64,000 nucleotides of DNA, from contig NW_003314275.1 in NCBI RefSeq assembly GCF_000143415.4, positions 1,903,419 through 1,967,418 on the forward strand, read 5' to 3'. Below the pieces are notes generated by a model. That model saw nothing but the letters and a program-made list of their open reading frames with translations. It was not told the origin of the DNA and made no database searches. Positions 15,001 to 63,168 of the stretch are shown piece by piece. Every line of letters begins with the position of its first letter. The stretch's first letter is position 1. The translations under genes and the position numbers were made by a program. This DNA is from Selaginella moellendorffii. Its lineage: Eukaryota > Plantae > Lycopodiophyta.

Positions 15001-15156
15001 CCCATCGAAGACAGTCTCTACTGATACAACAGCATTGCCTTCCCCAAGCCTTTGATAGTGTATAACAAAGTTCCGATCCATAGACACAAGGGTCCCTTTT
15101 GCAACTCTCTTCCCACCATTCAAAATGTAAACCTTTTCCCCAACCCTGAAGGCCAT
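12015..15156 (-). pseudogene. Sola-like DDD transposase (about 1030 aa consensus), one premature stop at 12691-12693; probable terminal intron 12101-12050
   Basis: Candidate catalytic motifs CIIHDKMDQKK, LQTDNAGSENKN and FLMVGHTHEDVDAMFS; CCxxxC and FSKCDEC Cys motifs; two N-terminal Tnp1/En-Spm-like repeats (VAKG..V.DP...LG). The TAG reads CAG in copy 2, joining ORFs 12691-15156 and 12088-12666 in frame. Removing the 52-bp GTGAGA..TTTCAAG intron gives the C-terminus QGEQSESESEEA*. Confidence 0.8.
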
Positions 15157-16451: not shown

Positions 16452-16477
16452 TTTAGGGTTTAGGGTTTAGGGTTTAG
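16452..16477 (+). promoter_or_regulatory. (TTTAGGG)3+TTTAG interstitial telomeric repeat / telo-box cluster in the divergent intergenic region
   Basis: Directly visible; retained in copy 2 at 51679-51704. A regulatory role is inferred. Confidence 0.6.
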
Positions 16478-27500: not shown

Positions 27501-28120
27501 CAGGTGGCTCGCGTAAGGCCACGGTGTTCCGAAATGTTGTCCCAAAGGCCCAAACTGTGGAAAGGAAGAGGAGCAGTCCTTTGGGGTAGTGACCAAGGAC
27601 ACAGTCGTGTGGTGAGGAAGTCCCAGAGGACCGTGGGACTTAGTGGTCGGGCCTGTGGGCCTCGATCCAGCGGCAGTGTTGGCAAACACGGCCAAGGGCA
27701 GAAAGGGACTTAGTGGGGACTAACAGAGGGATATTGGGGAAGGCTATTCCCCTTGTCGGTGGGCATCCTAAGGATGCTAAGGAGTGGATCTGAGATGACC
27801 ACTCACGGATGGTTTGCCTAGTCTTGGAGAGCCAAGTCTGTGATGCAAGTGGTATTGGACCACCAATGTGACCAAGGTGAATGGGCATGGCCTAGCGTAA
27901 TGGGCTAGTATGTCGGTGGTACCTTGGGGTGTCGGTCATGGGATCGGACACGTGGAGCACTTGGACTAAGTGCAAAGGTTGAGTGGCATGGATGCCAATC
28001 TCGGGGCTAGCATGCCCCAAGTCCTAACTGGGACATATGGAGGTTGTGAATGAGACTCCTCCAAGTGGTCGAAGGTGCGGTTAAGTGACTAAAGTAAAAT
28101 GGAAAAATTTGTCGCTTACA

Positions 28121-31100
28121 TTATCCCTCATAAGGGTATATCTAACTTCTTTATCCCAATAAAAAGTCTTAGGTAGTTACGTTCTACCAGTTTAACCAAT
28201 TATTTTGCACCTTTTGCTTAGTTGCCTCATAGTTGTCAAGTCCTCCAACTCATTGTTGGTGCTTCCACACTTCCATCATTATCTGGGTCACCACACTCTA
28301 ACCGCATGCCTTCCAGCTTAGGCTATGCTATTCCCATTTCCATTAGGATTCCTTTGGAAGGGGTTTTCATAAACCCACCAATTTGACCTCAAGGCAGCAC
28401 GCCTTGGCACATTCGGTGTCTCCACACCATTAGCTCCACGAGCTTACCTTTATGACACTTCTTACTTGTGTCTAGGTCTTTTTGCCAAAACCAATATGGT
28501 TGTCTCTTATGCCAATTATCCATTAGCACTGCACTATAAAGTTCATGCACAACTTTGCGTTAAAGTATTTTCTTCCAGGAAACTCCTTCCCACGACTTTA
28601 GCATGGCACCTTTTGCCATCAATGAAATACACACTATTCTCATGCTTGGATCTCAAGATCCTCCCCATCCTTCATGGGGCACCACACACTCAGTTCAAAT
28701 GCTTCCATCAATCCCTTAGGATTATTCCTTGACTCTATTAGAGTCATCAGACTTTTTAGACTTTGCTAATCCGATAACCCACGAGGTTCTACTTTTGAGG
28801 TGCCAGCTCACTGGAATACAACTCCTTGTATTCATGTCCTACTTACAAGGACCATCTTTGCAAGTGTTACTCCAACACTTGATTGTTCTCTAGGGGCAAC
28901 TTTTTGCCCCTTAAGACCATATGATGAGAATACCAACTCATCCTCTAAGTACACCCCCAACTCTTTGGATTGTTCTAGCATTTATTAGAGGTAGCCCTGG
29001 CTACCATTTCAAGGACTTGTGTTCTCTTCTGCATTTGACTTCCCACAGTTATCAATTCCGGTCTCAAATTTATGAGCACTAGCCTCAACTATATAAGTGT
29101 AGTCTTGTGACTCCTTTATTATTTTGGAGTCTACCTCTTTCCCATGATCCCAACTATAGTTGTTTACCACAACTACATTAGCCCATTTGCTGCGTCAAAT
29201 GCTCATCCGGATCACATCCTCAACTCTCTGAGAAAACCCCTATACAGTTCCCAAGATCCCAAAGTCGTTCCCTTATTGGCCTTTTTCCATCCACCACATT
29301 GCACACAAGTTCACGCATGAACTTGAGTGGGGAGCCATGTCCTCTCACCATGCTACTCCTCGAGGATAGGTCCATACCTAGGACCTTCTTATTCCAATAA
29401 AAGTGGTGATATACTTGGCCACCAATAAAAGTCAAACTAAGGAACAGCTCTGATACCAAGTTGTAAGCGACTAATTTTTCCATTCTACTTTAGTCACTTA
29501 ACCGCACCTCCAACCACTTGGAGGAGTCTCATTCACAACCTCCATAAGTCCCATTCAGAACTTGGGGCTTGCTAGCCCCGAGAATGGCATCCACGCCACT
29601 CAACCTTTGCACTTGGTCCAAGTGCTCCACGTGTCCGATCCCATGACCGACACCCCAAGGTACCACCGACATACCAGCCCATTACGCTAGGCCATGCCCA
29701 TTCACCTTGGTCACATTGGTGGTCCAACACCACCTGCATTACAATCCCGTCTCTCAAAGACTAGGCCATCCATCCATGAGTGGCTATCCCAGATCCACTC
29801 CATAGCATCCTCAAGATGCCTGCAGACATGGGGAATAACCTTCCCCAATGTCTCCTTTCCGGTCCCCACCAAGTCCCTTCCTGTTCATGGCCGTGTTCAC
29901 CAACACTGCCATTGGATCAAGGCCTATAGGCCTGACCACTAAGTCCAACTATCCTCTAGGACTTCTTCACTGTGTGATTGTGTCCTTTGTCACCACACCA
30001 GAGGGCTACTCCTCTTCCTTTCCACAGTCTGAGACTTTGGGGCAACATTTCGGAACACCATAGCCCTACGTAGGTACTCTCCTCACCTTCTGCCTTTGGG
30101 TGCTCTAGCCATGGGCTTAGAGCGAGGTTCCGTTGAACCACCCTAGGTATCCAAGTAGGTAGTGCCACCCATACTTGGACTGGGAGCATTAGCCAGTCGA
30201 TCACCCAGGGGAACTAGAGCCCGCTCTTGAACACTTCACCAAGCTACCCCACTTGTCGATCTGTGTTCACTCTAGTCTTGGACTTCTCAGTGGTTTTTCC
30301 ATGACCCAACACTTGGGAATAGCTTTCCTGGGCCAAACTAGCCTTTCCTAGCCAAACTGGCTTCATTGCAGTCCTCCCCCTCACTATACTTTTGGAGCTC
30401 ACCAAACACCCCAGGGTTTGAGAGATGAACGCTTTGGGCTTTCACCCTCTTAGACTCGGACTCGGACTTGGACTCGGACTCCGACTTGGACTCAGACTTG
30501 GGCTCGGTCTCAGCCTCGGCCTCGGTCTCAATCTTGGTCCCGATCTCAGTCTCGGTCCTGGTCTCAGTCTCGGTCTTGACCTTGGACTCCATCTCGGGTC
30601 CTTCTCAGACTCCATCTTGGACTCCACCTCGGGTCCATCTCGGACTCCATCTCGGTCCATCTCGGACTCCATCTCGGACTCCGTCTCGGGTCCATCTCAG
30701 AGTCCATCTCGGACTCCATCTCAGACTCCGTCTCGGGTCCATCTCGGACACCATCTCGGACTCCGTCTCGGGTCCATCTCGGACTCCATCTCAGACTCTA
30801 TCTTGGGTCCATCTCGGACTCCATCTCAGGTCCATCTCAGACTCTATCACGGGTCCATCTCGGATCCATCTCAGACTCCATCTCAGGTCCATCTCGGGTC
30901 CATCTTGGATCCATCTCGGGTCCATCTTGGATCCATCTCAGACACTTCCACGTGTCATGTGTCGGTCCTCTTGTATCCCTTTTCTAGATACTCACTTATC
31001 TTTCACTTCATGCTTGTTCCTCGAGCACTTCATTGAGAGTTCCACTCCCACTCTCGACCTTTTCAAGTCGGAGCTTTTAGTCCAAACGTGTTACGCTCGT

Positions 31101-34100: not shown

Positions 34101-36283
34101 AATGGAGTCCGAGATGGACCCGAGATGGAGTCCGAGATGGAGTCCGAGAGGAGTCCGAGATGGACCCGAGATGGAGTCCGAGATGGAGTCCAAGATGGAT
34201 CCGAGATGGAGTCTGAGATGGAGTCCAAGATGGACCCGAGATGGAGTCCGAGATGGAGTCTGAGATGGACCTGAGATGGAGTCCCAGATGGAGTCCCAGA
34301 TGGATCCGAGATGGAGTCCAAGATGGACCCGAGATGGAGTCCAAGATGGACCTGAGATGGAATCCGAGATGGAGTTCGAGAAGGACCCGAGATGGAGTCT
34401 GAAGTCGAGACCGAGACCGGGACCGAGACCGCGACCGAGATCGGGACCGAGACCGAGACCGAGGCCGAGACCGAGCCCGAGTTCGAGTCCGAGTCCGAGT
34501 TCGAGTTTGAGTTCGAGTCTAAGAGGGTGAAAGCCCAAAGCGTTCGTCTCCCAGACCCTGGGGGGTTTGGTGAGCTCCAAAAGTATAGTGAGGGGGAGGA
34601 CTGTAGTGGAGCCAGTTTGGCTAGGAAAGGCCAGTTTGGCCCAGGAAGGCTGTTCCCAAGTGTTGAGTCATGGAAAAACCATTGGGAAGTCCAAAACTAG
34701 AGTGAACACAGATCGACAAGCGGGGTAGCTTGTGTAAGCCACAAATTTTTCCTTTCCAATTTGCCAGCTTACCTCGTCTATCCGTCCAACGCTGCCTTGG
34801 CTTTTGCTAAGTTCCCTCGCCAAGGTTCTCGCCTATGGTACCAGCTCCTACTTGGTTTCAGCTACTCACTGCACGAGCAACGGAGTGTTAGCCATCCTTC
34901 CACGGATTCCCAAATCACTCCCAATCCCCCTCCCCGGGTTAGACTGGACTTAAGGTTCGGCTACACTCCCCGCAAGCACAAGCAGCCAAGCACACCAAGC
35001 TTCCGGGTTCCTAACATCCCTTGGTACCACAAGACTTGATCATGGGACCCTCTAAATCCCAAGTCTTGAGTGCAACACTTGCTTCGGGACACCGGGGCGA
35101 AACACCGTGGCCTAACGACCCGGTATGGGTACCTCTCGCCCCCCACTTCCATCCCGAAGGAAGGCCCAAGCCCCTAGGCAGGGCGAGGACCAATGAGCCG
35201 CATGGTACTCAAGTGGGGCACCACTCCACATGAGCCGGGAGCACCGCAATCGGTTTCCCTTTCGGGAGTGGGAGCTGCTCTTGAGCACTTCCTTGGATGG
35301 CCCCTCCGGCACCAGCCAAGTCCATGCTCACTCCCACCCAAGGCCCCTTGGTTTCAGTCCCAACCTCAAGTCGGTTTGGAAGCCCAACTGGAGAGTCCCT
35401 TCAAAACTGGTTCCTGGACCTCACTATCCCTACTATACTTTTGGAACCCCCTGCAGCCCCCCCCCCCTGGGGGACGCACGCTTTGGGCTTTCACCCCTTG
35501 ACCCGTATTAGTATTTGGACTTAGTCTCTGGCTCGATCTCGGATCCGATTTCGGATCCGACTTCGGATTCGGTCTCGGACTCGATCGCGGACTCGATCTC
35601 GGACCCGATCTCGGGCCCGACCTCGGACTCGACTTCGGACTCGGTCTCGGACCCGATTTCGGATCTCGGACTCCGTCTCGAACTCGGTCTCGAACTCGGA
35701 CTCGAACTCGGTCCCCGAGTCGGTCTTGGACTCGATTCCGGACTCTATCTCGAACTCGGTCCTAGAGTCGGTCTTGGACTCGATCTTTGACTTGGTCCCA
35801 TCCGATGAACTCTTTGTCATTTTGGTCATGCTTTCGGGGTTCCCTTAGCCTACGACACCTCGGCGAGTTGGTTCCTTACAACTCCACCACCCATAGAAGA
35901 AGTTCGATGCCCACATCGAACGTCTCTTTTTTATCCTACGACTTGTTGACCATGTCTCCGGGGGCATCCCCCCACTTAGCGGTGTGCCTAAGTTAGCCTC
36001 CCCGGCCAAGAGCTCATGACAACGGAATATAGGTGTCCCTACACTCCTCCCCTCACCACGCCCTAGTATGGGGTCGGGACTTGAACCCAGCCTTGCTTTA
36101 CTAGGGGGTTGGGACTCGAACCCAACCTCCGTAGAATACGTCTACGGATTCGACATCCCCGCAGGGAGTCGGGCGTAGCTCCCTACGCCTGGTCGACCTA
36201 GCTAACCCATGCTAATTAGCTTACCTTCGGCGCGCCTTCGGGTCCCAATATATGCCATTGCTCAACTTCTCAAATTGATACTT

Positions 36284-39200
36284 TTAATTGAACTTTGCAT
36301 AAGTACATAGAGTTCTGCCATGCAGAAATTCCTCCACTAGATATCGCGCGTTCGCTAGGTTCTCCTCCGGTTCCCATGTTGCTTCGCAGTGTGGAAATCC
36401 TTTCCACTTCACATGGAACTCTCTCACCTCGCGTCCTTGTCGCTTGCTCTTGCGCGCATTGAGGATGGCCTCGACTTCGTATTCCTCCTCCCCTTGGATA
36501 ACCTCAGGTAAAGGTCTTACTTGGTCCTTGCGAAGCGGATCCTCAAAATACGGCTTGAGTAAGTTCACGTGGAACACGGGATGCATCTTCCCCATCTCTC
36601 GAGGAAGTTGGAGACGGTAAGCCACTTTACCGATTCGAGCCTCAATCTCGTAAGGCCCCGCGAACCTGCTTAAGGAACTCAAGATCAATTCATTTACAGG
36701 AATACATGCATTTTTACCTTTGGGTCAACTTCCGGCTGATCCCACTTGGTAGCCTGAGGTTCTTGGTGTTCAGCCACACCTTCTCCCCAGCTTGGAACTC
36801 CACATCTCGACGCTTTTGGTTCGCGTACTTAGTTTGCCTTTGTTGAGCCCGTTCCAAGGAATCCCTCACTAGATTCCAAATGTTGAGTCTTTCCGCCGTG
36901 AATGCCTCCACTGCGGGTAACTCTCCATGATACTCGGCCACGCCGAGTTCCACAGGACCTTCAATAGCTCGCCCATTGATGACTTCCCATGGACTCACCC
37001 CGATGCTCGAATGTGGTGAGTTGTTATAACACATTTCCGCAAGTCCCAAATGACTTACCCAGTCGGTCTGGTCTCCCGAGACATAGCATCGCAAATAATC
37101 CTCCAGCTGCCTATTCACCCTTTCCGTTTGTCCGTCTGTCAAGAAGTGTTAGTGCCATCAATCTTGACTCAATACCCATTACCTGTCTGTGGGTGATAGG
37201 CCGTGCTGAATTTCAACTTGGTGCGATACTGTTCTAGGAGTGTCCTCCAGAACCTACTGGTGAAGATCTTATCTCGATCTGAGATAATCTCTTCCGGCCT
37301 TCCCCGCACTCGAACCACTTGTTCGAAGAACAGCTTCGCCACACCTTCCGCATCCACATCCGTTGTGGTGGGTATGAAATGTGCCATCTTTGAAAATCGG
37401 TCCACCACCACGAATATCGCATCGAACCCCTCGCTTGGGGGTAGTCCCGTGATGAAGTCCATCGTGAGACATTTCCACGGACGATCTGGAATGGGGATGC
37501 TTTGCAACAAGCCCCCACTAGCCTTCGTCACGGCTTTGACCTGCTGACATGTTGGACATGTCTTTACATAGTCTTGGACGTCCTTAGCCATATCTGGCCA
37601 GTGATACTTCCTTTTGAGTAAGCCTATCGTCTTGGGCACTCCGCCGTGTCCCGCGAGAGGTCCGTCATGACACTCTTCCAAGGCTACCTTCCTTAGTTCC
37701 CCTTCTGGAACATACACCCTCGTTTGCTTGTAATATATGAGTCCGTTGCGTTCCGCATAGCCCGTTTTCTCTTCCGTTGGCAGCTCACCTCTCTGGTGAG
37801 CTTCCCGCGCCTCCAGATTCCTTAGCAACACTTCTTGTGCTAGACCATCACTCTCGTATGCGGTCCGCACATCGTCCCAAAAGGTTGCTGTCGCGCTAGA
37901 TATCGCCAACTTCAAGCTCGCTTTTCGACTGAGCGCATCTGCCACGATGTTGCTCTTCCCAGGCTTGTACAGGATCTCGCAATCAAACTCGGCCAAAGCA
38001 TTGGCCCACCGACCTTGTTTTCCCCTTAGGTCGGGCTGTGACAAGAAGTGTTTCGTTGCCACATTGTCCGTATAAACCTTGAAGTGTCTCCCAAGGTAGT
38101 GTCGCCACTCCTTGAGCGCCTTGACCACCGCAAACAATTCCTTCTCGTGGGCAGGCCACTTCCGTTGAGCCTTGTCCAGCTTCTTCGAGAAGAACGCTAC
38201 TGGATGGTTGTCTTGCTTCAAAACTGCGCCCAACGCAAAGTCCGAAGCATCCGTGTCTACCTCAAAGTCCTTACCAAAGTCTGGTAATGCCAACACCGGA
38301 GCCTTCCTCAACTTCCCTTTGAGGTGGACGAATGCCGCCTCGCATTCCGCTGTCCATACCATCTTCCCTTTTCCTGTTTGGTCCGTTAAGGGCAGGGCTA
38401 CTCTCGAATAGTGTCTGATAAACTTTCGATAGTAGTTGCATAGCCCCAGGAACGCCCTCAACTCATGTACATTCGATGGTCGTTCCCATTCCTGGATCGC
38501 TTGGACCTTCTCCGGGTCCACCTTGAGCCCGTCCTGGCCCACCACATGCCCGAGAAACTTTACCTCTTGTTGAGCAAAGTCACATTTGCTCTCTTTAGCA
38601 TACAGTTTGTGTTCCCTTAGTTTCTCAAACACCTTCGCCAAGTGTTCGGCATGCTCCTCTAGCGTCTCGCTATAGATCAGGATGTCGTCAATATAGACGA
38701 CCACGAAGCGATCCAGATAGGGTACAAAGATGTGGTTCATCAACGCCGAAAACGTTGCCGGCGCATTGCACAGCCCAAAGGGCATCACCAAAAACTCAAA
38801 GCTCCCATACCTCGTTCGACAGGTTGTCTTCTCGACATCTTCCTCAGCTACCCTGATCTGGTAGTATCCTGACCTTAGGTCAATCCTCGAGAAGTATTTT
38901 GCCTTTCCCAACCTATCGAACAGGTCCTCGATCCTTGGCAAAGGGTACTTGTTCTTCTTGGTATACTTGTTGAGCAACCGGTAGTCTATGCACATGCGCA
39001 TAGATCCATCTTTCTTTTTCACAAATAGCACCGGCGCCCCATACGGCGACTTGCTCAACCGAACATACCCTTTGTCCACCAACTCCTCTAGTTGGCTCTT
39101 GAGCTCCTTGAGTTCTTTTTCGTTCAATCGATAGGGTGGACGAACCACCACCTCAGCACCCTCGACCAGCTCAATTTTATGTTCTATCGGTCGTGCGGGG

Positions 39201-41056
39201 GGCAACCCCGCCGGTAGCTCCTCTGGCATGGTATCCTGGAATTGGTCCAGCACCTGCTGGATCACTAAAGGTACTTCTTCCGTTCTTGTCTTTTTGTCAC
39301 TCTTCACCGAGAGTAAGCACAAAAAGGCTGCCTTAGTTCCTTTAGTGAGTTGTCCTCTCGTGGACACCAGGTTTAAGCATGACTCTTTGGCCTTGCTTTG
39401 CCCTACCTTTAGATCTTGGGCCTCCACCCTAGATCTTCTTCCTTGGGCATTCGCCAATACCACAAGGTTCCTACCTTGTCCATGCAGGGCTACCACGAAC
39501 CGATTAAACCAATCCATTCCGAAGATCACGTCAAATCCCGCCATGTCCAAGACGGTGAAATCCATGTCCACTTTCCATGTCCCCACTTCGACTCTCGCTT
39601 GTCGAAGTACCTCATCGGTGCTTTGGCTACCTTGAACAAACTCTATAGTCCTTGGTTCGCCTAGCCGCTGCACCGTTAGTCCGGCTTGCCGGACTATGTC
39701 TGCAGCCACAAAATTATCCGAAGCACCCGTGTCAATAAGGATCTTAACAAAGCTACCTCCGAGCTTCCCTCGGAGGGCTAGTAGATGTCGCGAACGACTC
39801 TCTACCAAAGTTGCTCGTGTAATGAGTAACTTTGAGTTAGGGACTGGATCACATACCTCAGTTTGGACTTCACCCGACTTGATGGCCATATTGGCTCTGG
39901 CCTTCTTCGGGTAGGGACATTCCCTCGAGAAGTGTCCCGCTTCGCCGCAGTTGTAGCATACGTTGTTTCCCACGCTGCTATACGACTTGACCTTCTTATC
40001 CGTGGGTTTGTCTTTTTTCGCTTGACTCCCCCACGTACTCGCTCGCTGGCCACCGGATTTGCCTTTCCGGAACCCCGAGGACTCATTCTTAGAGAAACTC
40101 TTCTTGAATTTCCCCTTGCTATATGTTCCCCTCGGTTTGGCCCCTTTGTGAAACGTGGATCCCGACCCCGTCGTGTTTCCCTTTCGCAGATTATCGTTGA
40201 AATGCACCTTGATGGCCGCATCCAACGCTTCCTTGTAGTTGGTCGGGTTCCAGTGCATCACCTCACCGCGAGCCCAGGTTTGCAAACCTGATATAAAAGC
40301 ATGGAACGCATCCATATCCCCCATGTCCGTGACAAGTATCCTCTTTGCCATGAACCCATTCACATATTCCTGGATGGTTCCAGTTTGCTTCAGCCTACTC
40401 AACTCATCTCTCAGATGCAGAGTGGCATTCGGAGGAACGTATGTCGCGCGGATCCTCGCCTTCATCATGTCCCAGGTGGCCACCGGTCCTTCGTTGGCCT
40501 CCGTTGTTCTCCACCAAGACTTGGCATTATCTGCCAAGTATGGTTTTGCACATGGGACCTTCTCCGAGCTCGGTAACCGCAACGCTCGGAAGTAGTCCTC
40601 CATATCGTAAAACCAATCCTCCACAACCTTATAGTCGTTCACTCCCTTGAACACCGGTGGGGGCTTTGGTTTGTACTTGGGAACTGCCTGAGGGACTGAT
40701 TCCACTTCGGTCTGTTCGACCTTGTCTGGTTTTGCCTCAGTCCCTACCGAAGGGTCCGCACCTTCTGCGCTGCCAGCATCCGCAGTCTTTCGCTTTTTCT
40801 TCCGCTTCTCGTCACGCTTTAACTTGCGTACGAGAGTCTCCAGCAGGGCATTGGTCTGTGCCAACTGTCCTTCTAGCACGTCCAATCGAGCCTTGGACGA
40901 CCGAACCTCGCCACCGGACTCTTGTTTGGAAGTTTCCTCACTGGAGTCCTCCTCATGCAAGGATTCCTCATCCATAGCCTCTTGTTCAACCGGAGGCTCC
41001 AGCTCCGGCGGAGGTTCCGTCTCCGCCTGGGTTCGCTTACGCCCTGCCCTTGCCAT
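36284..41056 (-). CDS. Gag-Pol polyprotein (Gag, zinc knuckle, protease, RT, RNase H, integrase, chromodomain), 1557 aa after splicing: join(41056-37183, 37135-36718, 36665-36284)
   Basis: [15 protein letters not shown]; DTGAS; YIDD; [11 protein letters not shown]; HHCC; TMDF/ISDRD/QTERVN; KLTQRFAGPY; chromodomain YEVEAIL..VKWKGF..ATWEP. Exon lengths 3874+418+382 = 4674 nt. Confidence 0.9.
36666..36717 (-). other. 52-bp spliceosomal intron 2 in the integrase GPY/F region (KLTQR^FAGPY)
   Basis: GTAAAA...TTAAGCAG. Removal restores [12 protein letters not shown]. Present in A2 at 61263-61313 (51 bp). Confidence 0.85.
37136..37182 (-). other. 47-bp spliceosomal intron 1 in integrase (HPQT^DGQTE)
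   Basis: GTAATG...CACTAAC (branch)...TTCTTGACAG. Removal restores [16 protein letters not shown]. Present at the same position in copy A2 (60798-60844). Confidence 0.88.
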
Positions 41057-43047
41057 CTCCCAGCAATCCGCCTCTATCCTTCGCTAGAACTGAGATAAAG
41101 GCTCCGATACCAAATTGTAAGCCACAAATTTTTCCTTTCCAATTTGCCAGCTTACCTCGTCTATCCGTCCAACGCTGCCTTGGCTTTTGCTAAGTTCCCT
41201 CGCCAAGGTTCTCGCCTATGGTACCAGCTCCTACTTGGTTTCAGCTACTCACTGCACGAGCAACGGAGTGTTAGCCATCCTTCCACGGATTCCCAAATCA
41301 CTCCCAATCCCCCTCCCCGGGTTAGACTGGACTTAAGGTTCGGCTACACTCCCCGCAAGCACAAGCAGCCAAGCACACCAAGCTTCCGGGTTCCTAACAT
41401 CCCTTGGTACCACAAGACTTGATCATGGGACCCTCTAAATCCCAAGTCTTGAGTGCAACACTTGCTTCGGGACACCGGGGCGAAACACCGTGGCCTAACG
41501 ACCCGGTATGGGTACCTCTCGCCCCCCACTTCCATCCCGAAGGAAGGCCCAAGCCCCTAGGCAGGGCGAGGACCAATGAGCCGCATGGTACTCAAGTGGG
41601 GCACCACTCCACATGAGCCGGGAGCACCGCAATCGGTTTCCCTTTTGGGAGTGGGAGCTGCTCTTGAGCACTTCCTTGGATGGCCCCTCCGGCACCAGCC
41701 AAGTCCATGCTCACTCCCACCCAAGGCCCCTTGGTCCCAATCCCAACCTCAAGTCGGTTTGGAAGCCCAACTGGAGAGTCCCTTCAAAACTGGTTCCTGG
41801 ACCTCACTATCCCTACTATACTTTTGGAACCCCCTGCAGCCCCCCCCCCCTGGGGGACGCACGCTTTGGGCTTTCACCCCTTGACCCGTATTAGTATTTG
41901 GACTTAGTCTCTGGCTCGATCTCGGATCCGATTTCGGATCCGACTTCGGATTCGGTCTCGGACTCGATCGCGGACTCGATCTCGGACCCGATCTCGGGCC
42001 CGACCTCGGACTCGACTTCGGACTCGGTCTCGGACCCGATTTCGGATCTCGGACTCCGTCTCGAACTCGGTCTCGAACTCGGACTCGAACTCGGTCCCCG
42101 AGTCGGTCTCGGACTCGATTCCGGACTCGATCTCGAACTCGGTCCTAGAGTCGGTCTTGGACTCGATCTTTGACTTGGTCCCATCCGATGAACTCTTTGT
42201 CATTTTGGTCATGCTTTCGGGGTTCCCTTAGCCTACGACACCTCGGCGAGTTGGTTCCTTACAGCTTGGTGAAGTGTTCAAAAGCAGGCTCTAGTTCCCC
42301 TGGGTGATCGACTGGCCGATGCTCCCAGTCCAAGTGTGGGTGGCACTACCTACTTGGATACCTAGTGTGGCTCAACTGAACCTTGCTCTAAGCCCATGGC
42401 TAGAGCACCCAAAGGCAGAAGGCGAGGAGAGTACCCACGAGGCTCGTGTAGGGCCATGGTGTTCCGAAATGTTGCCCCAAAGTCCCAAACTATGGAAAGG
42501 AAGAGGAGTAGCCCTCTGGTGTGGTGACCAAAGACACAGTCACACAGTGAGGAAGTCCCAAAGGACAGTTAGACTTAGTGGTCAGGCCTGTGAGCCTTGA
42601 TCCAATGGCGAACACGGCCATGGACAAAAAGGGACTTGGTGGGGACCGGAAAGGAGATATTGGGGAAGGCTATTCCCCATGTCTACAGGCATCCTGAGGA
42701 TGCTATGGAGTGGATCTAGGATAACCACTCATGGATGGATGGCCTAGTCTTTGAGAGATAGGATTGTGATGTAGGTGGTGTTAGACCACCGGTGTGACCA
42801 AGGTGAATGAGCATGGCCTTAGTGTAATTGGCTGATATGTCAGTGGTACCTTGGGGTGTCGGTCATGGGATCGGACACGTGGAGCACTTGGACCAAGTGC
42901 AAAGGTTGAGTGGCATGGATGCCATTCTTGGGGCTAGCAAGCCTCGAGTCCTGAATTGGGCTTATGGAGGTTGTGAATGAGACTCCTCTAAGTGGTCAAA
43001 TGTGTGGTTAAGTGACTAAAGTAGAATGGAAAATTTAGTCGCTTACA

Positions 43048-43218
43048 ACATGGAGCACTTGGACCAAGTGCAAAGGTTAAGTGACATGGATACCATTTTC
43101 GGGGTTAACAAGCCCCAAGTCCTGAATTAGACTTATGGAGGTTGTGAGTGAGATTCCTCTTGGTGGTCAAAGAGGTGGTTAAGTGACTAAAGTAGAATGG
43201 AAAACTTAATCGCTTACA
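43048..43218 (+). mobile_element. 3' fragment of another family-C LTR (host of C2)
   Basis: Second ...AGTAGAATGGAAAA..TCGCTTACA LTR end, abutting gag of A3. Confidence 0.7.
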
Positions 43219-46200
43219 ATTCCCTCGAAAAGTGTCCCACTTCACCACAGTTGTAGCATATATTGTTTCCCACGCGGTTAGAAATTTTGACCTTTTTATC
43301 CATGGGTTTGTCTCTTTTTGCTTGACTCCCCCACATACTTGCTCGCTGGCCACCGAATCTGCCTTTCCGGAACCTCGAGGACTCATTTTTAGATAAACTC
43401 TTCTTGAATTTCCCTTTGTTATATGTTCCCCTTGGTTTGGCCCCTTTGCTAAATGTGGACCCTGACCCCATCGTGTTCCCCTTTCGCAGGTTATCATTGA
43501 AATGCACCTTGATAGCCGCATCCAACGCTTCCTTGTAGTTGGTCGGGTTCCAACGCATCACCTCGCCGCGAGCCCACGTTTGCAAGCCTGATATGAAGGC
43601 ATGGAATGCATCCATATCACCCATATCCGTGACAAGTATCCTCTTTAGCATAAACAAATTCACATACTCTTGAATTGTTCTTGTCTACTTCAGCCTACTC
43701 AACTCATCCCTTACATGTAGAGTAGCATTCGGAGGTACGTAAGTCACATAGGTCCTTGCCTTCATCATTTCTCAAGTGGCCACCGATCCTTCGTTGGCCT
43801 CTGTCGTTCTCCACCAAGACTTGGCATTATCTACCAAATATGGTTTTGCACATGGGACCTTCTCCGAGCTCGGTAACCGCAACGCTCGGAAGTAATCCTC
43901 CATATCGTAAAACCAATCCTCTACCACCTTATAGTCATTCACTCCCTTGAAGACCGGTGGGGGCTTTGGTTTGTACTTGGAAACTGCTTGAGGGACTAAT
44001 TCCACTTCGGTCTGTTCGACCTTGTTTGGTTCTGCCTTAGTCTTTGCCGAAAAGTCCGCACCTTCTGCGCTGCCAACATCCACAATCTTTTGCCTTTTCT
44101 TCCACTTCTTGTCATGCTTTAGCTTGCGTACGAGAGTCTCTAGTAGGGCATTGGTCTGTGCCAATTGTCCTTCTAGAACATCCAATTGAGCCTTGGATGA
44201 CCGAACCTCGCCACCAGACTCCTGTTTGGAAGTTTCCTCACTGGAGTCTTCCTCATGCAAGGATTCCTTATCCAAAGCCTCTGGTTCGACTAGAGGCTCC
44301 AGCTCTAGAGGAGGTTCTAACTTCACCTTGGTTCATTTACGCCTTGCCTTTGCCATCTCCCAGCAATGCGCCTCTATCAGGAAAAGGTTCTGATACCAAA
44401 TTGTAAGCCACAAATTTTTCATTTTCAATTTGCCAGCTTACCTCGTCTATCCGACCAACATTGCCTTGGCTTTAGCTAAGTTCCCTCGCCAAGGTTCCTG
44501 CCTATTGTACTAACTCCTACTTGGTCCTACTTGGGTTCAGCTACTCACTGCACGAGCAGCAGAGCATTAGCCATTCATTCACAGATTCCCAAATCTCTCC
44601 CAATCCCCCTCCCCGTGTTAGACTAGACTTAAGGTTTGGCTACACCGGCTACACTCCCTGCAGGCACAAGCAGCCAAACACACCAAGCCTCCAGGTTCCT
44701 GACATCCCTTGGTACTACAAGACTTGATCATGGGACCCTCTAAATCCCAAGCCTTGGGTGCAACACTTGCTTCGGGACGCCGGGGTGAAACACCGTGGCC
44801 TAACGACCAATACGGGTACCTCTACCCCCCCCCACTTCCATCCTGAAGGGAAGGCCCAAGCCCTACTATACTTTTGGAACCCCTTGCAGCCCCCCCCCCC
44901 CGGACATACACTTTGGGCTTTCACCCCACGACCTGTATTAGTAGTCGAACTCGGTCTTGGACTCGATCTCGGACTCTACTTCGGACTCGGTCTCGGACCC
45001 AATCTCAGACTCGATCTCGGACCCAACCTCGAACTCTGTCTCGGACTTGATCTCGGACTCGGTCTCGGTGTCGCAAATGTGACTTCGGGTATCGAAAGTT
45101 ACCTGTCGGTTAGTTCTTTCGGATATTCTTTTCTTACTGCCACGATGGCAGGAGGTCGGTATTGTTGGACTCATTATCAGTTTCCCACTTGGGCTAGTTG
45201 AGAAACTGGTCAATGACGGTGCACTTAAATTGGATAAACATAAGGTAACAACCCTATGTGTTTCTTGCTGAGCATACTCGGCCTGGTTTGAGAAACTTGA
45301 GTCATTGGCTTGCACTTGCTAGTATCAAGAACCCTTGCGATGTTGAGATTGGTCCTATAATATTCGCTAGATGATAGCTTACCATGTCTGCCAAACACCC
45401 TTGCTATCATACCCTTTGTGTTAGTCTTATTTTGGTTCCAAATGCTATTTATGGAAAGTGTCTAGATTCACTTATTTAGCATATCTACGGAATGTAGAGA
45501 TCGGCCTGAACACAATGGTGTTCGTCCCATGTCCAAATTCACAATCTAGCGCCATTCCATATTTAGTAAGTTTCGAGCTTGTCGCAGAGACTAACTCCTA
45601 ATACTAAGGGAGGCTTGGGGTGAAAGCCCAAAGCGTGTGTTTCTTAAGGGGGGGGGGGGGCTGTGGGGGGTTCCAAATGTATAGTAGGGATAGTAGGTAG
45701 GTCGGGCATGGCCAACCAACCTGAGGCATAATGTAGCTCCCGCTTGCGTGCCTGTTCTTGTTCTGCGTCTGGTTTGGGTCTAAGCCCAAGCTCCACACCA
45801 TGCTAGCTGGTGGAGTACCCATGTCCTCGTGTTAGGCCACCCGTATGCTGAAATAGCGCCAAACTCCGTTTGGCTCCATTTTGCATGTTGGTCCTGGCAT
45901 TAGGATGCTGGTTGCTCTAGAACTGTTGCAAATTGCTTCGGGCTCCTGTCCCTTCGCTCCTTGGGCTGTGTGCTCGGGAGTTGCTCCGTGGACCGATTCC
46001 ATCACTCCTTGGCTCCATGCTTGGGAGTTTGGCACCGTTCATTCGTTCAGTGGCTCAAGGCCCTGAACCTCAGGTTCCGCACCATTGTCCTTTGGACACA
46101 TGGCATATGACACGTGGCATGTGTCACGTGGCATAAAGAGGGTTTAGGTTCCGCTTCGTGGTGTTATCCTATGGTAAATCACCATAGGATAAAGGGTCAA

Positions 46201-48234: not shown

Positions 48235-49890
48235 TTATTTTTTGTCGATGCTCACCCTCTCCACGGCCACTTGCTCGAAGATCCAATCCTTCAATAGCGC
48301 ACGAGCTCTCAGAGTCGTCCACAAGTCCTCGTATGTCACAATATGGTCGGGAGTCATTTTGGTATTGTTGAAGACTACTTCACCACGTAGAAGAGCATTA
48401 GCCACTGTCAGAAGGTCGTCGTCGTCTAGAGACCGCGAGAAACGCAAGGTGTTGAGCTTCAAATCATTGGGCTTCCGGCCGTCCTCCACACCCATTGAGT
48501 TTAGCAACTCCCCGTCATGGTACCTCCTTAGCACATCTACCCATTTGTCAAAAACAACTTTTGTCGCAAGTAGAATGTTATGGATGCTGAGTGTGTCATT
48601 GACCCCCAGTGTTTTCGAGAGAAGACTCGAGAATTCCTGCAATGGAAATGGCGTGAGGCCACATGCTATGCCACATGCAACGAGGCTTACTTGCCAGGCG
48701 CTAGTTGCTAGTGCACGTCCTTGTCCTGGTTTTTGTGGCTTCTTCAGTTGAACCCAGAGCTTCCGTGTTCGTGCCAATGTCTCGTGCAGACCCGATTTGT
48801 AGCACGTTTTTTGCTTGACATTCTGCGCGTGGGAGATGTATATGATAGATCGGAGGGGCGAGTTGCCTTTTATCAGGTGGACAACTCTTGTCTTGAAGAC
48901 TTTCTTCACCTCCTCACCCACCATAATATCCACAACTATCTCTTGCATCGCCAAGCTAGAATGCTGCCCGGAGACGGCATAGAACCGGATGTTCTGATCG
49001 TCCAACACCTTCCTATTGATCAAGTCTGGAAACCTCGTCTCACCCTTCATTGTTCGGTAGTAGGGGATCACGTCTGCGATGTCGGGTGTTACTGGACTTG
49101 CCAGCATCTTCTGCTTCAGTTTCTCCACCCACTCATCAGATACTAGCATGTGGTTGTATTTGCTTTGGATGTCGATACGGCTCACGTCGATTGTATATAC
49201 TTTGTTGGAATAGTAACAAGTACTATTATCTGCGACAATTTTTGCTACCTCTTCTTGCTCTTTCTGCTCTTTGTGGCTCTTCTTTTTGGTGGGTGTAGTG
49301 TTTGAACCCGAGGCAATGGCATCACCGAGTAGCTTCTTTTTTGGAGCAGGAGAGTCGAACGTCGGCTTGAGCTTGACCACCCTTTTCTGCTTCGGGGTAG
49401 TTTCCAGATCGACCCCCTACCCCTTCGCTTCGCGAACTGGAGTCACTCTCAACGGCTCAATGTTGGAATATAGTTTTTGAACATCGCTGTAGGTGAAGTC
49501 CGTGGATTCCATGTGATCTTCATAGACCCGTAGCGTCTTTGAAATTGTGGGCCTCCTGGACAACCTCTCCCTAGCTCCCTCTAGGAATTCTTCATAGCCG
49601 CTGCCCCCCTCCGGGAAGCCGCTAGGATGTGCAAGGTGGATCTTGAAGGCGGACGCTGTCTCTACCACAAGTGCCAGTCCATATTCTTGCATGGAACTGC
49701 ATGGAGTGTCTATCACTTGGATGAGGATCCCCATGCATTCTTTTCTCCCACCATCTGTGTTGTACAGCCTCAGATCCTCGCCTTCCATCCCGAAAGTCCA
49801 ACTGGTGAGCTCCTCCCCCTTCTTTGCATCCACATTGACAGTGGCTGGAAGAAGAACGCAATTCCTCGCCTGTTCAGAAATGCACAACAA
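48235..49890 (-). pseudogene. Truncated cargo gene (ParB-like part only), frameshift near 49420-49440
   Basis: Near-identical to 18281-19928; ends at the deletion junction (about 48243). Confidence 0.8.
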
Positions 49891-52800: not shown

Positions 52801-52899
52801 ATGTGGCCTCATGCTATTGAGGTTGTTTGGTATGTTATGATTTAGGCCATTCTCCAATCATTTTTTTTATGGTCTTAACTTCTTTTCTGCACTTTCAGA

Positions 52900-55800: not shown

Positions 55801-56028
55801 GGGTGCTGAATCCAAGGGATCCCAGCATGAGCATATCGGTGGATAATGTTGTGCATGGTTGGATGCGGAAGCAGAGTGCCACCATCACCTTGCCAGACCA
55901 TGCAAGAGATGCAGCAAGAGCATTCATAACCCGGGTTCAAGGTGAGATTCATTAATATTCCTTTACTAAGTTTCTAATGTATTTTATTTCAAGGTGAACA
56001 ATCCGAATCTGAATCAGAGGAGGCGTGA
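52900..56028 (+). pseudogene. Sola-like transposase pseudogene, copy 2
   Basis: Near-identical to 12015-15156; small deletion near 53013; stops at about 53061, 53541 and 55431. Confidence 0.85.
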
Positions 56029-57575: not shown

Positions 57576-60500
57576 CAAAGGGAAATTCAAGAAAAGTTTC
57601 TTTAAGAATGAGTCATCAAGGTTCCGGAAAGGCAGATCCGGTGGCTAGCAAGCAAGTACGTGGGGGAGTCAAGCAAAAAGAGACAAACCCACAAATAAAA
57701 AAGTCAAGTCTGCTAGTAGCGTGGGAAACAATGTATGCTTCAATTGCGGTGAAGCGGGACACTTTTCGAGGGAATGTCCATACCCAAAGAAGGCTAGAGC
57801 CAATATGGCCATTAAGTCGGGTGAAATCCAAACTAAAGTACGTGATCCAGTCCCTCACTCAAAGTTACTTATTACACGAGCAACTTTGGTAGAGAGTCAT
57901 CCGCGACATCTACTAGACCTCTGAGGGAAGCTCAGAGGTAGCTTTGTTAAGATCCTTATTGACATGGGTGCTTCGGATAATTTTGTGGTTGTAGACATAG
58001 TCCAGCAAGCTAAACTAACAGTGCAGTGGCTAGGTGAACTAAGGACTATAGAGCACCGATGAGGTACTTCAACAAACAAGAGTTGAATTAGGGATTTGGA
58101 AAGTGGATATGGATTTCACTATATTGAACATGGCGGGATTTGACGTATTCTTTAGGATGGATTGGTTCAATCGATTCGTGGTAGCATTGCATGGACAAGG
58201 TAAGAACCTTGTGGTACTGGCAAATACCCAGGGAAAATGATCTAGAGTGGAGGCCCAGGATCTAAAGGTAGGGCAATGTAAGGCTAAAGACTCCTGTTTG
58301 AACCTGGTGTCCACGAGAGGACAACTCACTAAAAGAACCAAGGCAGCATTTTTATGCTTACTCTCAGTTGTAAGCAACCAAAGGGATTGACATTTGGCAG
58401 GTCCAATTTGCTCCCGCTGGGCTCGACCCGAGGGGTAGGGTGTCAAAAGAGCAGGGCTCTCGGGAGAGCTGCGGCTCTCAACTTCCGTTCACGAGGGCGT
58501 GAACTTGTAGGGAAGCATGGTGGATTATAAGCAACCAAAGGGAACGACTTGAAAGACAGTCCATGGGGTTCAAATATAGAGGGAAAGGGCCCATGAATAA
58601 GAGTGCACCCCCTTTTCCAATCGGTCAAGGGTCTTGGGATAGCTGGAGTTAAATGTCCTTGGGTTTGAATAGTACTGGGCTGGGTGACCTCCTGGGAAGT
58701 CCAAATTCAGGAACTTACATCAGTGAGGAGTGACAAAAAACTAACTTAAGGAGTTGGTGGAAAAAGGGTATGTTAGGTTAAGCAAGTCATTGTATAGTGC
58801 ACCGGTGTTATTTGTGCAAGCTAGTAGAGGGTGCTAAGGCGGTGGTTCGTCCACCCTATTGTTTGAACAGAAAAAAACTCGAGGAGCTTAAATGCTAACT
58901 TAAGGAGTTGGTGGAAAAAGGGTATGTTAGGTTAAGCAAGTCACTGTATAGTGCACCGGTGTTATTTGTGAAAAAGAAAGATGGATCTATGCATATGTGC
59001 ATAGACTACTGGTTGCTCAACAAGTATACAAAGAAGAACAAGTACCCTTTACCAAGGATTGAGGACCTGTTCGATAGGTTGGGAAAGGCGAAATACTTCT
59101 CGAGAATCGACCTAAAGTCAGGATACTACTAGATCAGGGTAGCAAAGGAAGATGTTGAGAAGACAACCTATTGGACAAGGTATGGAAGTTTTGAGTTTCT
59201 AGTGATGCCCTTAGGGCTGTGTAATGCACCAATAACATTCTCAACGTTGATGAACCATATTTTTGTACCCTATTTAGATCATTTTGTGGTCGTCTACATT
59301 GACGACATCTTGATCTATAGTGAGACACTAGAGGAGCATGCCAAACACTTGACAAAAGTGTTAGAGAAACTAAGGGAACACCAGCTGTATGCTAAAGAAA
59401 GCAAATGTGAATTTGCTCAACAAAAGGTAAAATTTATCGGGCATGTAGTGGGCAAGGACGGGCTCAAGGTGGACCATGAAGTGATCCAGGAATGGGAACG
59501 ACCATCGAATGTACACGAGTTAAAGGCATTCTTGGGGCTATGCAACAACTACCGAAAGTTTATCAAATACTATTTGAGAGTAGCCCTACCTTTAACAGAC
59601 CAAACGGGAAAAAGGAAGATGGTATGGACAGTGGAATGCGAGGTGGCATTTGTCCACCTCAAAGGGAAGTTGAGAAAGGCTCCCATGTTGGCATTACCAG
59701 ACTTTGGTAAGAACTTTGAGGTAGAAACGGATACTTCAAATTTTGCATTACGTGCAGTTTTGAAGCAAGAAAACCATCCAATAGTGTTCTTCTCAAAGAA
59801 GTTGGACAAGGCTCAGCATAAGTGGCCTACCCATGAAAAAGAATTGTTTACGGTGGTCAAGGCGCTCAAGGAGTGGCAACACTACCTTAGGAGACACTTC
59901 AAAGTTTACACGGATAATGTGGCAACAAAACATTTTTGTCACAACCCGACCTGATAGGGAAATAGGGTCGGTGGGCCAATGCTTTGGCCAAGTTTGATTG
60001 CGAGATTTTGTATAAACCTGGGAAGAGCAACATTGTGGCAGATGATCTAAGTCAAAAAGCGAGCTTGAAGTTGCTGATATCCAGCGCGATAGCAACCTTT
60101 TGGGATGATGTTCAGATAGCGTACAAGAACGATGGTCTAGCACAAGAAGTGTTGCTAAGGAACCATGAGGTGCGGGAAGCTCATCAGAGAGGTGATGGAA
60201 GAGAAAACAAGTTATGTGGAATGCAATGGACTCATCTACTATAAGCAAACAAGGGTTATGTTCTAAAAGGGGAACTAAGGAAGGTAGCCTTAGAAGAGTG
60301 TCATGACAGACCTCTTGCGGGACATGGCGAAGTGCCCAAAATGATAATGATAATGATGATACTCAAGAGGAAGTATCACTGGCTAAATATAGCTAAGGAC
60401 GTTTAAGACTATGTAAAGACATGTCCAACACGTCAACAAGTCAAAACCGTGACTAAGGCTAGTGGGGGCTTGTTACAAAGCATCCCCATTCCAGATCGTG

Positions 60501-63168
60501 CATGGAAATGTCTTACAATGGATTTCATCACGGGACTCCCCCCAAGTGAGGGGTTTGATGCGATATTCGTGGTGGTGGACCAATTTTTGAAAATGGCACA
60601 TTTCATACCCACCACAATGAAGGTGGATGCGGAAGGTGTGGCGAAGCTGTTCTTTAAATAAGTGGTTCAAGTGCGGGGAAGGTCAAAAGAGATTATCTCA
60701 GATCGAGATAAGATCTTCACCAATAGGTACTGGAGAACTCTCCTAGAGCAGTATTGCACCAAGTTGAAATTCAGCACAGCCTATCACCCACAGACAGGTA
60801 TTGGGTATTAAATCAAGTTTGATGGCACTAACACTTCTTGACAGACAGACAAACGGAAAGGGTGAATAGGCAGCTGGAGGATTATTTGCAATGCTATGTC
60901 TCCAAAGACCAAACTGATTGGGTAAGTCATTTGGGACTTGTGGAAATGTGCTATAACAACTCACCACACTCGAGTATTGGGGTGAGTCCATGGGAAGTCA
61001 TCAATGGGCGAGCTATTAAAGGTCCTGTGGAACTCGGCGTGGCCAAGTATCATAGAAGGCTACCTGCAATGGAGGCATTCACGGTGGAAAGACTTAATAT
61101 TTGGAATCTAGTGAGGGATTCCTTGGAATGGGCTTAACAAAGGCAAACCAAGTATGCAAACTAGAAGCACCGAGACGTAGAGTTCTAGCCTGGGGAGAAG
61201 GTGTGGCTAAACACCAAGAACCTAAAGCTACCAAATGGGATCAACCAAAAGCTGACCCAAAGGTAAAATGCATGTATTTCTGGAAAGGAACTGATCCTAA
61301 GTTCCTTGAGCAGGTTCGTGGGGCCTTACGAGATTGAGGCACAAATTGGTAGGGTGGCTTACTGCCTCCGACTACCTCGAGAGATGAGGAAGATGCACCC
61401 TGTGTTTCATGTGAACTTACTTAAGCCGTATTTTGAGGATTTTCTTCGCAAGGACTAAGTAAGGCCTTTACCTGAGGTTATCTAAGGGGAAGAGGAATAC
61501 GAAGTCGAGGCCATCCTCAATGCGCACAAAAGCAAGTGACAAGGGCATGAGGTGAAGGAGTTCCATGTGAAGTGGAAAGGATTTCCACACTACAAAGTAA
61601 CATGAGAACCGGAGAAGAACTTAGCGAATGCGTGGGATTTAGTGGAGGAATTTTTGCAAGGTAGAACTTTATGTACTTATGCAAAATTCAATTAAAGAAT
61701 CTATTTTGAGAAATGAAGCAATGTCATATGTTGGGACCCAAAGGCATGCCAGAGGTAAGTTAATTAGCATGGGTTAGCTATGTTGACTAGGCATAGGAAA
61801 CTACACCCAACTCCCTACAAAGATGTCAAATCCGTAGACATATTCTACAGAGGTTGGGTTCGAGTCCCGACCCTCTAGTAAAGCAAGGCTAGGTTCAAGT
61901 CCCAACCCCATACTAGGGCGTGGTGAAGGGAGGGGTACAGAGACACCTATATTCCATTGTCATGGGCTCTTGGCCAAGGAGGCTAATGTAGGCACACCGC
62001 TAAGTGGGGAGATGCCCCCAGAAACATGGTCAACAAGTCGTAAGATTAAAAAGAGGCATTTGATGTGGGTATCGAACTTCTTCTATAGGTGGTGGAGTTG
62101 TAAGGAACCAACTCCCTAAGGTGTCGAAGGCTAAAGGATCCTTGAAGGCATGACCAAAATGATAAAAAGTTCATCAGATGAGACCGAGTTCAAGATTGAG
62201 TCCGAGACCAACTTCGAGACCGAGTTCGAGACCGAGTCCAAGACCGAGTTCGAGACCGAGTTCGAGATCTGATATCGAATTTGAGACCAAGTTCGAGATC
62301 CAGTCTGAGGTTGGGTCCAAGATCGAATCCGAGACCGAGTCTGAAGTCGAGTCCAAGATCGAGTCCAAGACCGAGTCCAAATACTAATACAGGTCATGGG
62401 TGAAAGCTCAAAGCGTGTGTCTCCCAGGGGGGGCTGTAGGGGGTTCCAAAAGTATAGTAGGGATAGTGAGGTCTAGGAACCAGTCTTGAAGGAACTCTTC
62501 AGTGGTGCTTCCAAACTGACTTGAGGTTGAGACTGGGGCCGAGGGGCCTTGGGTGGGAGTGAGCATAGACTCGGATGGTGCCAGAGGGGCCACCCAAGGA
62601 AATGCTCAAGAGTAACTCCCACTCCTGGAAAGGAAACCGACTGCAGTGCTCCCGGCTCATGTGGAGTGGTGCCCCACTTGAGTACCTTGCAACTCATTGG
62701 TCCTCGCCCTTCTTAGGGACTTGAGCCTTCCCTTTGGGATGGAAGTGGGGGAGTAGGGGTACCCATACCGGGCCGTTAGGCGATGGTGTTTTTCCCCGGT
62801 GTTCCGAAGCAAGTGTTGCACCCAAAGCTTGGGATTTAGAAGGTCCTATAATCAAATCTTGTTGTACCAAAGAATGTAAGGAACCTGGTGGCTTAGTGTA
62901 CTTGGTTGCTTGTGTCTGCAGGGAGTGTAGCCGAACCTTAAGTCCAGTTTAACCTGGGGAGGGGGATTGGGAGAGATTTGGGAATCCGTGGATGGATGGC
63001 TAACACTCCATTACTCGTGTAGTGAATAGTTGAAACCAAATAGGACCAAGTAAGAGTTGGTAGAATAGGTGGGAACCTTGGCGAAGGAACTTAGCTAAGG
63101 CCAAGGCAGTGTTAGTTAGATAGATGAGGTAAACTGGCAAATTGGAAAGGAAAAATTTGTGGCTTACA
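57576..63168 (+). mobile_element. Decayed chromovirus A2 (5'-truncated in gag; pol pseudogene with both introns; 3' LTR 62099-63168)
   Basis: Gag knuckle, RT (YIDD), RNase H, integrase and chromodomain remnants with many stops; PPT before 62099; LTR ends GGCTTACA. Confidence 0.9.
58369..58719 (+). mobile_element. 351-bp Cassandra-like solo LTR carrying a 5S rRNA-derived segment (58647-58702)
   Basis: TGTAAG...CTTACA termini and perfect TSD TCAGT. AGTTAAATGTCCTTGGG..TAGTACTGGGCTGGGTGACCTCCTGGGAAGTCC resembles the plant 5S internal control region (AGTTAAGCGTGCTTGGG..TAGTACTAGGATGGGTGACCTCCTGGGAAGTCC). Confidence 0.8.

Follow-up and report, generated by a model that had tools for sequence, protein, structure and literature searches.

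Evidence for introns within the integrase coding region of a Ty3/gypsy chromovirus from Selaginella moellendorffii

Based on homolog alignments and aligned sequencing runs we found that a young LTR retrotransposon of Selaginella moellendorffii, here called A1, carries two short introns (IN1 and IN2) inside its integrase coding region, and that these introns are almost certainly genuine and inherited. The element lies in a window of 64,000 nucleotides, the whole stretch of DNA that was analysed, and belongs to a successful family that needs splicing for its integrase yet keeps its introns. According to the accessible text of PMC12786077, retrotransposition is classically proven by the loss of an intron on the way through RNA, and reporter assays are built on this. 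As a rather probable explanation for the persistence of the integrase introns, we propose that a leader intron strips the PBS and the end of U5 from the mRNA, which would leave unspliced RNA as the sole template for copying.

Architecture of the element and of its interrupted integrase

A1 occupies 34733-42263 on the minus strand, as do all of its features given below. Its LTRs have TG...CA ends and are bordered by a matching 5-bp TSD pair (42264..42268 = 34728..34732). The 5' LTR (41116..42263, 1148 bp) contains a 12/23-nt tandem repeat block and includes the leader donor at 41155, and it differs from the 3' LTR (34733..35880) by 6 mismatches in 1148 positions. Three nucleotides past the end of the 5' LTR, and inside the leader intron, lies a 12-nt PBS (41101..41112), which we take to be of the tRNA-Met type. 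The Pfam positions give the domain order GAG-PR-RT-RH-INT, and a chromodomain (PF00385, E 5.5e-16), encoded by exon 3, is found at the integrase C-terminus. Domain order and chromodomain, together with the LTR ends, the 5-bp TSD and the PBS beside the 5' LTR, are those of a Ty3/gypsy chromovirus. A1 is one by membership, as the initial annotation of a young, TSD-flanked chromovirus had it, and its expression strategy sets it apart as a variant.

In a FastTree analysis of RT-RH-INT with 125 rows (the query and 124 near-full-length matches of 262, without labelled clade references), A1 was sister to P0267 with a support of 0.989. The pair fell inside a clade (0.991) with chromodomain elements of about 1535 aa from Melia, Linum, Helianthus and Camellia, which we take to be Galadriel. 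Judged by eye, the A1 chromodomain shows the pattern Tyr...Trp..Phe at what are presumably the aromatic-cage positions. In the accessible part of PMC6317226, the aromatic-cage chromodomain is described as limited to non-seed plants, and the Tcn1 clade as self-priming and without a tRNA PBS. Assignment of A1 to the Tcn1 clade was rejected because of the PBS-type motif 3 nt after the LTR.

Two further copies are present in the window. A2 (57576..63168, plus strand) is a decayed sister, about 87% identical, whose pol region, as far as it was compared, is broken by 13 in-frame stops. It holds IN1 at 60798-60844 and IN2 at 61263-61313, the same places as in A1 and as originally claimed, and also the region of an additional intron, G. 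A3 (43219..44863, minus strand) is a partial copy consisting of an LTR end and gag, in which the leader donor and the PBS are present and the leader acceptor is deleted. A CG/CHG mutation bias was also seen, and together with the aromatic-cage chromodomain it would point to a host among the non-seed plants.

The frame that opens with the ATG at 41056 encodes 1295 aa and ends at a stop within IN1. Coding exon 1 (37183..41056, 1291 codons) covers Gag, the zinc knuckle, protease, RT, RNase H, the integrase HHCC motif and two catalytic aspartates, Asp1200 and Asp1260. It is followed by IN1 (37136..37182; 47 nt, phase 1, GT...AG), which contains an in-frame stop and a CTAAC motif 17 nt before its 3' end. 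Coding exon 2 (36718..37135, 138 open codons) supplies the rest of the integrase core, including the catalytic Glu of D(35)E, 36 residues on. IN2 (36666..36717; 52 nt, phase 2, GT...AG) separates it from coding exon 3 (36284..36665, 126 codons), which encodes GPY/F-SH3 (PF24626) and the chromodomain and then reaches a stop. When the three exons are joined, 1557 residues are obtained, each split codon being written as X. Frame and domain positions agree with the earlier statement that the product of unspliced RNA would be 1295 aa long and would lack both the catalytic Glu and the chromodomain.

Precise removal of both inserts was claimed to restore HPQT^DGQTE and KLTQR^FAGPY, and this was supported by the alignments. 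Junction 1 is spanned by 119 of 120 homologs with no gaps within 5 aa, and Asp stands at the split codon in 112; junction 2 is spanned by 93 of 120, of which 80 are gap-free, with Arg or Lys at the split codon in 89. Exon 2 is 42% identical to positions 1322-1456 of P0267 and in the PDB it matches Ty3 Gag-Pol 7q5b_A at 1269-1389 (E 4.5e-5). There are 8 and 9 frame-compatible GT...AG pairs at the two sites, and the RNA-type contigs described below use the two pairs that restore homology. Frameshift or read-through was excluded, since the inserts would add residues that are absent from all gap-free homologs. An assembly error was excluded as well, both inserts being found in A1 and A2 and in DNA contigs and being spliced in RNA.

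The initial annotation described the pol frame as broken only by the 47- and 52-bp GT-AG inserts. This holds for the reading frame, but the element has two further introns, of 66 nt (the leader intron) and 157 nt (G). As in spliceosomal (U2-type) introns, GT...AG ends were found in all four introns, and their T content is raised, at 0.29-0.35 compared to 0.12-0.18 in the flanks. A branch-site search gave CTAAC at -17 only in IN1, weaker candidates in IN2 and G, and none in the leader intron. It had also been proposed that splice signals and branch site are kept in A2 while the intron interiors drift. All eight GT/AG bases are unchanged in A2, but CTAAC occurs in IN1 and in none of the other introns. 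Taken by itself A2 says little, because intact GT/AG would be expected by chance with a probability of 0.40. The drift was not confirmed: A1 and A2 differ at 12 of 99 intron sites and at 135 of 1238 exon sites (p=0.74), so the introns do not change faster than the exons. When compared with fourfold-degenerate sites, of which 59 of 302 differ, the introns showed 11 differences in 98 sites, which is not significant (p=0.067).

Splicing in RNA-type data and state of the genomic DNA

Seven of 24 sequencing runs were aligned (X1, X4, X15, X17, X18, X23 and X24). X23 and X24 are recorded as RNA, and X15, X17 and X18 are guessed to be RNA. A check of RNA across both integrase junctions had been suggested, and spliced reads and contigs do exist. 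One 1083-nt contig in record 1 of X15 omits exactly 52 + 47 nt with GT-AG ends. In X18, which comes from another study, IN2 is omitted, and a second contig starts at 37183 with 77 unplaced letters. From the recorded-RNA runs came 10 reads (X23) and 2 reads (X24), of which one was informative: a single read of X23 carries the 47-nt IN1 joint, and no joint was found in the two partial reads of X24. By run, IN1 joints were thus seen in X15 and X23, IN2 joints in X15 and X18, the leader joint in X15 and the G joint in X17 only. A contig of X17 retains IN1, which means that spliced and unspliced forms are both present, although this contig may be DNA, and in record 23 of X4 IN2 is intact in a contig crossing the site. 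With an identity of about 97%, and hence a difference of about 3%, the expressed copy is a sibling of A1 and not A1 itself.

The leader intron (41090..41155, 66 nt, GT...AG) was seen in record 13 of X15, where 41156-41733 is joined onto 40327-41089 and exactly 41090-41155 is skipped; a loose contig end agrees with this joint. The intron takes in the final 40 nt of the 5' LTR (U5), then 3 nt of spacer, the PBS of 12 nt and another 11 nt, and in X17 a contig continues unspliced into the PBS. A hairpin is predicted in U5 at 41118..41155, which would pair the leader donor with the terminal bases of the LTR. Its fold z value was -2.5 in A1 and -3.3 in A3, and three other LTR ends gave -0.8, -1.2 and +0.9, which are not significant. 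Covariation of the U5 stem was discounted as support, as it amounts to one change between two families. Speculatively, the hairpin could bias a molecule toward the unspliced fate.

The optional intron G (39700..39856, 157 nt, GT...AG) is in frame if retained and contains the DTGA motif of the protease. Its removal was detected as a 39699/39857 skip in one X17 contig with a depth of 4.7 and a short side of 30 letters. Two contigs of X15 border it, one stopping at 39701 and one starting at 39857, with nothing between them. Past the G acceptor the frame stops at the second codon, and the product after removal of G would therefore be a Gag that is about 400 aa long and ends after the zinc knuckle. 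As judged from the one contig, intron G has the features of the shGAG introns, namely a position over the protease, a frameshift and a stop just past the junction. Since the interior of G is uncovered in X15, the IN-spliced RNA of this run may be Gag-only mRNA.

Between A1 and A2, at a pS of about 0.3, dN/dS was 0.17 from RT to the integrase core, 0.21 in exon 2 (p 2e-6) and 0.16 in exon 3 (p 1e-8). Both lineages carry the introns, and the low dN/dS therefore means that translation reached the exons past the in-intron stop during the time in which the introns were passed on. The differences of the expressed copy in exons 2 and 3 point the same way, with 10 of 12 at third positions (p=0.0005) among the 40 listed of 158 rows.

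The state of the genomic DNA was determined from the DNA run X1, of which 84,625 contigs were aligned. In the three IN bins that contain introns, summed depth was 0.97-1.10 million compared to 0.80-1.25 million across the internal region; at 37170, inside IN1, it was 693k, and the remaining internal sites in the list gave 444-994k. Single long contigs (8 shown) had a depth of 107-163. Depth is no copy number, but it points to roughly thousands of copies. Among the best 15 of 122 joints in X1, with depths of 240-462, there were no splice joints. Abundant intron-less copies, which according to the initial annotation would have spoken against it, were not seen; a common intron-less class is unlikely, and a rare one could be hidden, as contigs drop rare variants and the joints of X1 are not all countable. 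The splices in RNA-type runs of three studies, the purifying selection and the flat DNA depth together uphold the claim that the full integrase needs spliced RNA and that the DNA keeps the introns. Splicing may in addition be a switch for integration competence, as the initial annotation put forward.

A proposed separation of translation and replication templates

In the mechanism that we propose, the element would make at least three RNAs. The first, unspliced genomic RNA, would carry the PBS and act as the template, and its product of 1295 aa would have neither the catalytic Glu nor the chromodomain. From the second the leader intron, IN1 and IN2 would be removed and G kept, giving the full 1557-aa Gag-Pol from an RNA that could not be primed. 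In the third G would be removed too, and Gag alone would be made, which would adjust the proportion of Gag to Pol in the manner of BARE1 and EVADE; the protease would come from the G-retained RNA and the excess Gag from the G-spliced RNA. A leader-spliced RNA could not bind the tRNA primer and would be without the U5 attachment end. If the leader and IN splices are coupled, the mRNA would never be copied and the introns would never be lost. The model needs this coupling because an IN-spliced RNA with the leader kept would be primed and would lose its introns. The leader splice and the IN splices were found on separate contigs, and the form with G retained and the IN introns spliced was not observed as one piece. 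Splicing itself would separate the templates of translation and replication in this mechanism and would leave the coding region free to gain ordinary introns. A wider reading is that a highly amplified LTR element has turned into a multi-intron gene in which the leader splice splits translation from replication and has allowed constitutive introns to be gained and kept in the catalytic core of integrase, host splicing gates integration and the U5 hairpin decides the fate of the molecule; for this reading as a whole we consider the chances to be even.

It is also conceivable, if unlikely, that the introns are real and the replicated RNA is a separate, never-spliced pool, set apart by an uncapped second start as in BARE1 or by packaging or export signals, with the leader intron being incidental or a safeguard. 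In the accessible text of PMC3735527, BARE1 replicates only its unspliced TATA1 transcripts, which are the sole carriers of the R domain. The long LTR of A1 has room for two starts, the contig with the spliced leader sets in at 41733 and thus deep within the LTR, and the absence of intron loss would be explained without coupled splices. However, the leader intron takes out precisely the U5 end and the PBS, which alone is enough to block priming, and no second start was seen in contigs, which cannot show start sites.

Coupled splicing would keep intron-less copies from arising. A quite improbable alternative is that they do arise but fail to spread, either because expression or export depends on the introns or cis-signals lie within them, or because silencing acts faster on copies without introns. 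The comparison of intron sites (11/98) with fourfold sites (59/302) is compatible with mild constraint, and contigs hide rare variants; however, the p value of 0.067 is not significant, and steady intron-less insertions should leave some copies behind, whereas no splice joint was among the best 15 of 122 DNA joints, where the lowest depth is 240 compared to about one million.

That copies with the inserts form a defective sublineage which autonomous copies without introns sustain, with the joined contigs being intron-less DNA, is very improbable and already largely refuted: X15, X17 and X18 are RNA by guess and not by record, but the IN1 joint is present in one recorded-RNA read, the X15 leader contig is without the LTR end and the PBS that a replicating DNA copy needs, the DNA depth is undiminished over the introns, and the A1/A2 values (pS about 0.3, dN/dS 0.16-0.21 past the in-intron stop) mean that the intron-bearing lineages were themselves selected for integrase.

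Comparison with known systems and origin of the introns

To our knowledge, plant LTR elements are without introns except for Ogre and the gag splicing of copia elements. The initial annotation knew of no description of integrase introns in an LTR element, and none was found in the mostly open-access literature searched; the REXdb supplements of PMC6317226 or the host genome paper could mention the family. The accessible text of PMC13148404, PMC12477816, PMC5718144, PMC7730604, PMC7197481 and PMC2864245 likewise held no precedent. Each ingredient of the A1 arrangement has a partial precedent; the combination, or codon-splitting integrase introns in an LTR element, was not found in this partly accessible literature.

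The closest parallels to intron G are in Ty1/copia elements. BARE1 of barley, so far as the accessible text of PMC3735527 describes it, is a copia element with an optional intron, which produces Pol from unspliced RNA. In BARE1 the RNA pools are kept apart through a pair of TATA boxes, through capping and through the R domain, and loss of the PBS plays no part; the integrase is without an intron. Similarly to intron G, the shGAG intron of EVADE and other Arabidopsis Ty1/copia elements lies over the protease and causes a frameshift with a stop past the junction (PMC5580714, PMC12786077, accessible parts). According to the same parts, the shGAG RNA terminates early and the EVADE-type integrase needs no splicing, in contrast to that of A1, and no such conserved splicing was found in Arabidopsis Ty3/gypsy elements.

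Among Ty3/gypsy elements, Ogre (Tat) resembles A1 in that part of its transcripts is spliced for the whole polyprotein and the DNA keeps the intron, as given in the accessible part of PMC6317226. An Ogre-type arrangement was rejected for A1, in which Gag to the integrase core is one open frame. Cer1 of C. elegans also needs both spliced mRNA and unspliced genomic RNA, but there the spliced product is the accessory export protein CERV, and Gag-Pol comes from unspliced RNA (PMC10309623, accessible text).

In foamy viruses the major donor lies ahead of the PBS and, as the leader donor of A1 does, within the LTR, there in its R region; Pol including integrase is made from spliced RNA (PMC3694450, PMC7828637, in the text accessible). 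From the donor position in these sources, the spliced pol RNAs would be without the PBS. The foamy viruses described there have a separate pol ORF, one large leader-to-pol splice and integrase coding without introns, whereas in A1 Gag and Pol share one ORF.

Outside LTR elements, Penelope-like elements keep introns after retrotransposition as A1 does, and in Penelope and Chlamys-3_cRei a 5'-UTR intron crosses the terminal-repeat boundary similarly to the A1 leader intron; they are not LTR/integrase elements. The accessible text of PMC8557442, from which this is taken, calls intron retention in retroelements highly unusual and its significance unknown. Ginger1 DNA transposons have a gypsy-type integrase with 1-4 GT-AG introns, but they have TIRs and are without RT (PMC2836005, accessible part). 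Their introns are no paradox because they move by cut-and-paste without RT. A1 was rejected as a Ginger DNA transposon, as LTRs, PBS, gag, PR, RT and RH are present.

The junctions of A1 provide a built-in marker for how genomic RNA is told from mRNA, as each of them can be followed in total RNA, in polysomes, in particles and in new insertions. ORF-based pipelines would call all copies of such a family defective, and for this reason intron-bearing autonomous LTR families may be under-counted.

Intron-bearing relatives of A1 were also sought in viral, prokaryote and metagenome collections and at the protein level, and none was found. A pattern for IN1 (one fixed Gln codon and a 40-70 nt intron) had 0 matches in viral contigs and 23 in metagenome contigs, and 23/23 of the latter were without similarity to the polyprotein. 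Queries with exon 2 and RT gave no locus in viral or prokaryote collections, and exon 2 as a stand-alone protein query gave 1 weak match only. Three IMG/VR relatives are without an intron at junction 1, with unbroken alignments. HPQT-type motifs in homologs continue with D/N-G in 279 of 294 cases, and none of the remaining 15 has the signature of reading into an intron and then a stop. As the IN1 pattern was tied to that codon and length range and the collections may miss the host lineage, these negative results do not make the arrangement unique.

The closest relatives (P0267 and the P0177 cluster, 56-60% identical) have uninterrupted ORFs through integrase and chromodomain; these nearest-relative ORFs are 1484-1578 aa long and come from metagenome-type contigs. 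Given these unbroken ORFs the introns seem to have been gained, and gain in the A1 lineage would be the simplest reading of the sequences. Short repeats flank the integrase junctions, 5 bases at IN1 and 4 bases at IN2, which would fit insertion with a short duplication. With such 4-5-nt repeats at both junctions, the introns of A1 would offer a datable case of intron gain.

Leader and termini of the chromovirus A1

The transcribed leader of the A1-type element (A1 being the minus-strand Ty3/gypsy chromovirus at 34733-42263) is at least 580 nt long within 41057-41733, and it carries seven upstream ATGs, none of which lies in the leader intron (41090-41155, minus strand). At the other end of the element, the stretch just before the 3' LTR (35881-35900) is purine-rich to a moderate degree only, and a long polypurine tract is absent from it.

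Divergence of A1 from its sister copy and the stop inside IN1

Comparison of A1 (36284-39170) with its decayed sister copy A2 (58819-61700) gave C-to-T differences at 94 of 310 CG, 46 of 192 CHG and 92 of 929 CHH sites, an enrichment at CG and CHG over CHH. We take this bias to be a methylation signature of the land-plant type and not fungal RIP. At site 37170, inside the first integrase intron (IN1), the base differed from that of A1 in 684k of the 693k of summed contig depth in the DNA sequencing run X1, the dominant base being that of A2. The codon at this site is a stop with either base, and therefore the in-intron stop of IN1 is kept.

Family B, a second LTR family

LTR ends of family B were located at 8388-8426, 28082-28120, 29462-29500, 43009-43047, 43180-43218 and 63645-63683. 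These terminal 39 nt share their length and stem layout with the chromovirus LTR (10 matches, 0.01 expected). In two copies a PBS-like motif precedes a stretch of pyrimidines that leads into an AG, an arrangement resembling the chromovirus leader acceptor. The family B regions tested showed no similarity to the polyproteins compared with them. Family B may be a non-autonomous partner of the chromovirus.

Other elements in the window

A2 is interrupted at 58369-58719 (plus strand) by a 351-bp insert with TG...CA ends and its own 5-bp TSD, of which 58629-58716 matched 5S rRNA in Rfam (38.1 bits, cut-off 38); in these features it is similar to Cassandra-type TRIMs reduced to a solo LTR. Long inverted copies of another element, 96-97% identical, pair 10436-17049 with 51107-57594 and 17383-19928 with 48243-50794. 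A 649-aa ORF of this element had no Pfam match, and other ORFs bear DUF7869 (PF25273); the element is probably a young DNA-type transposon.
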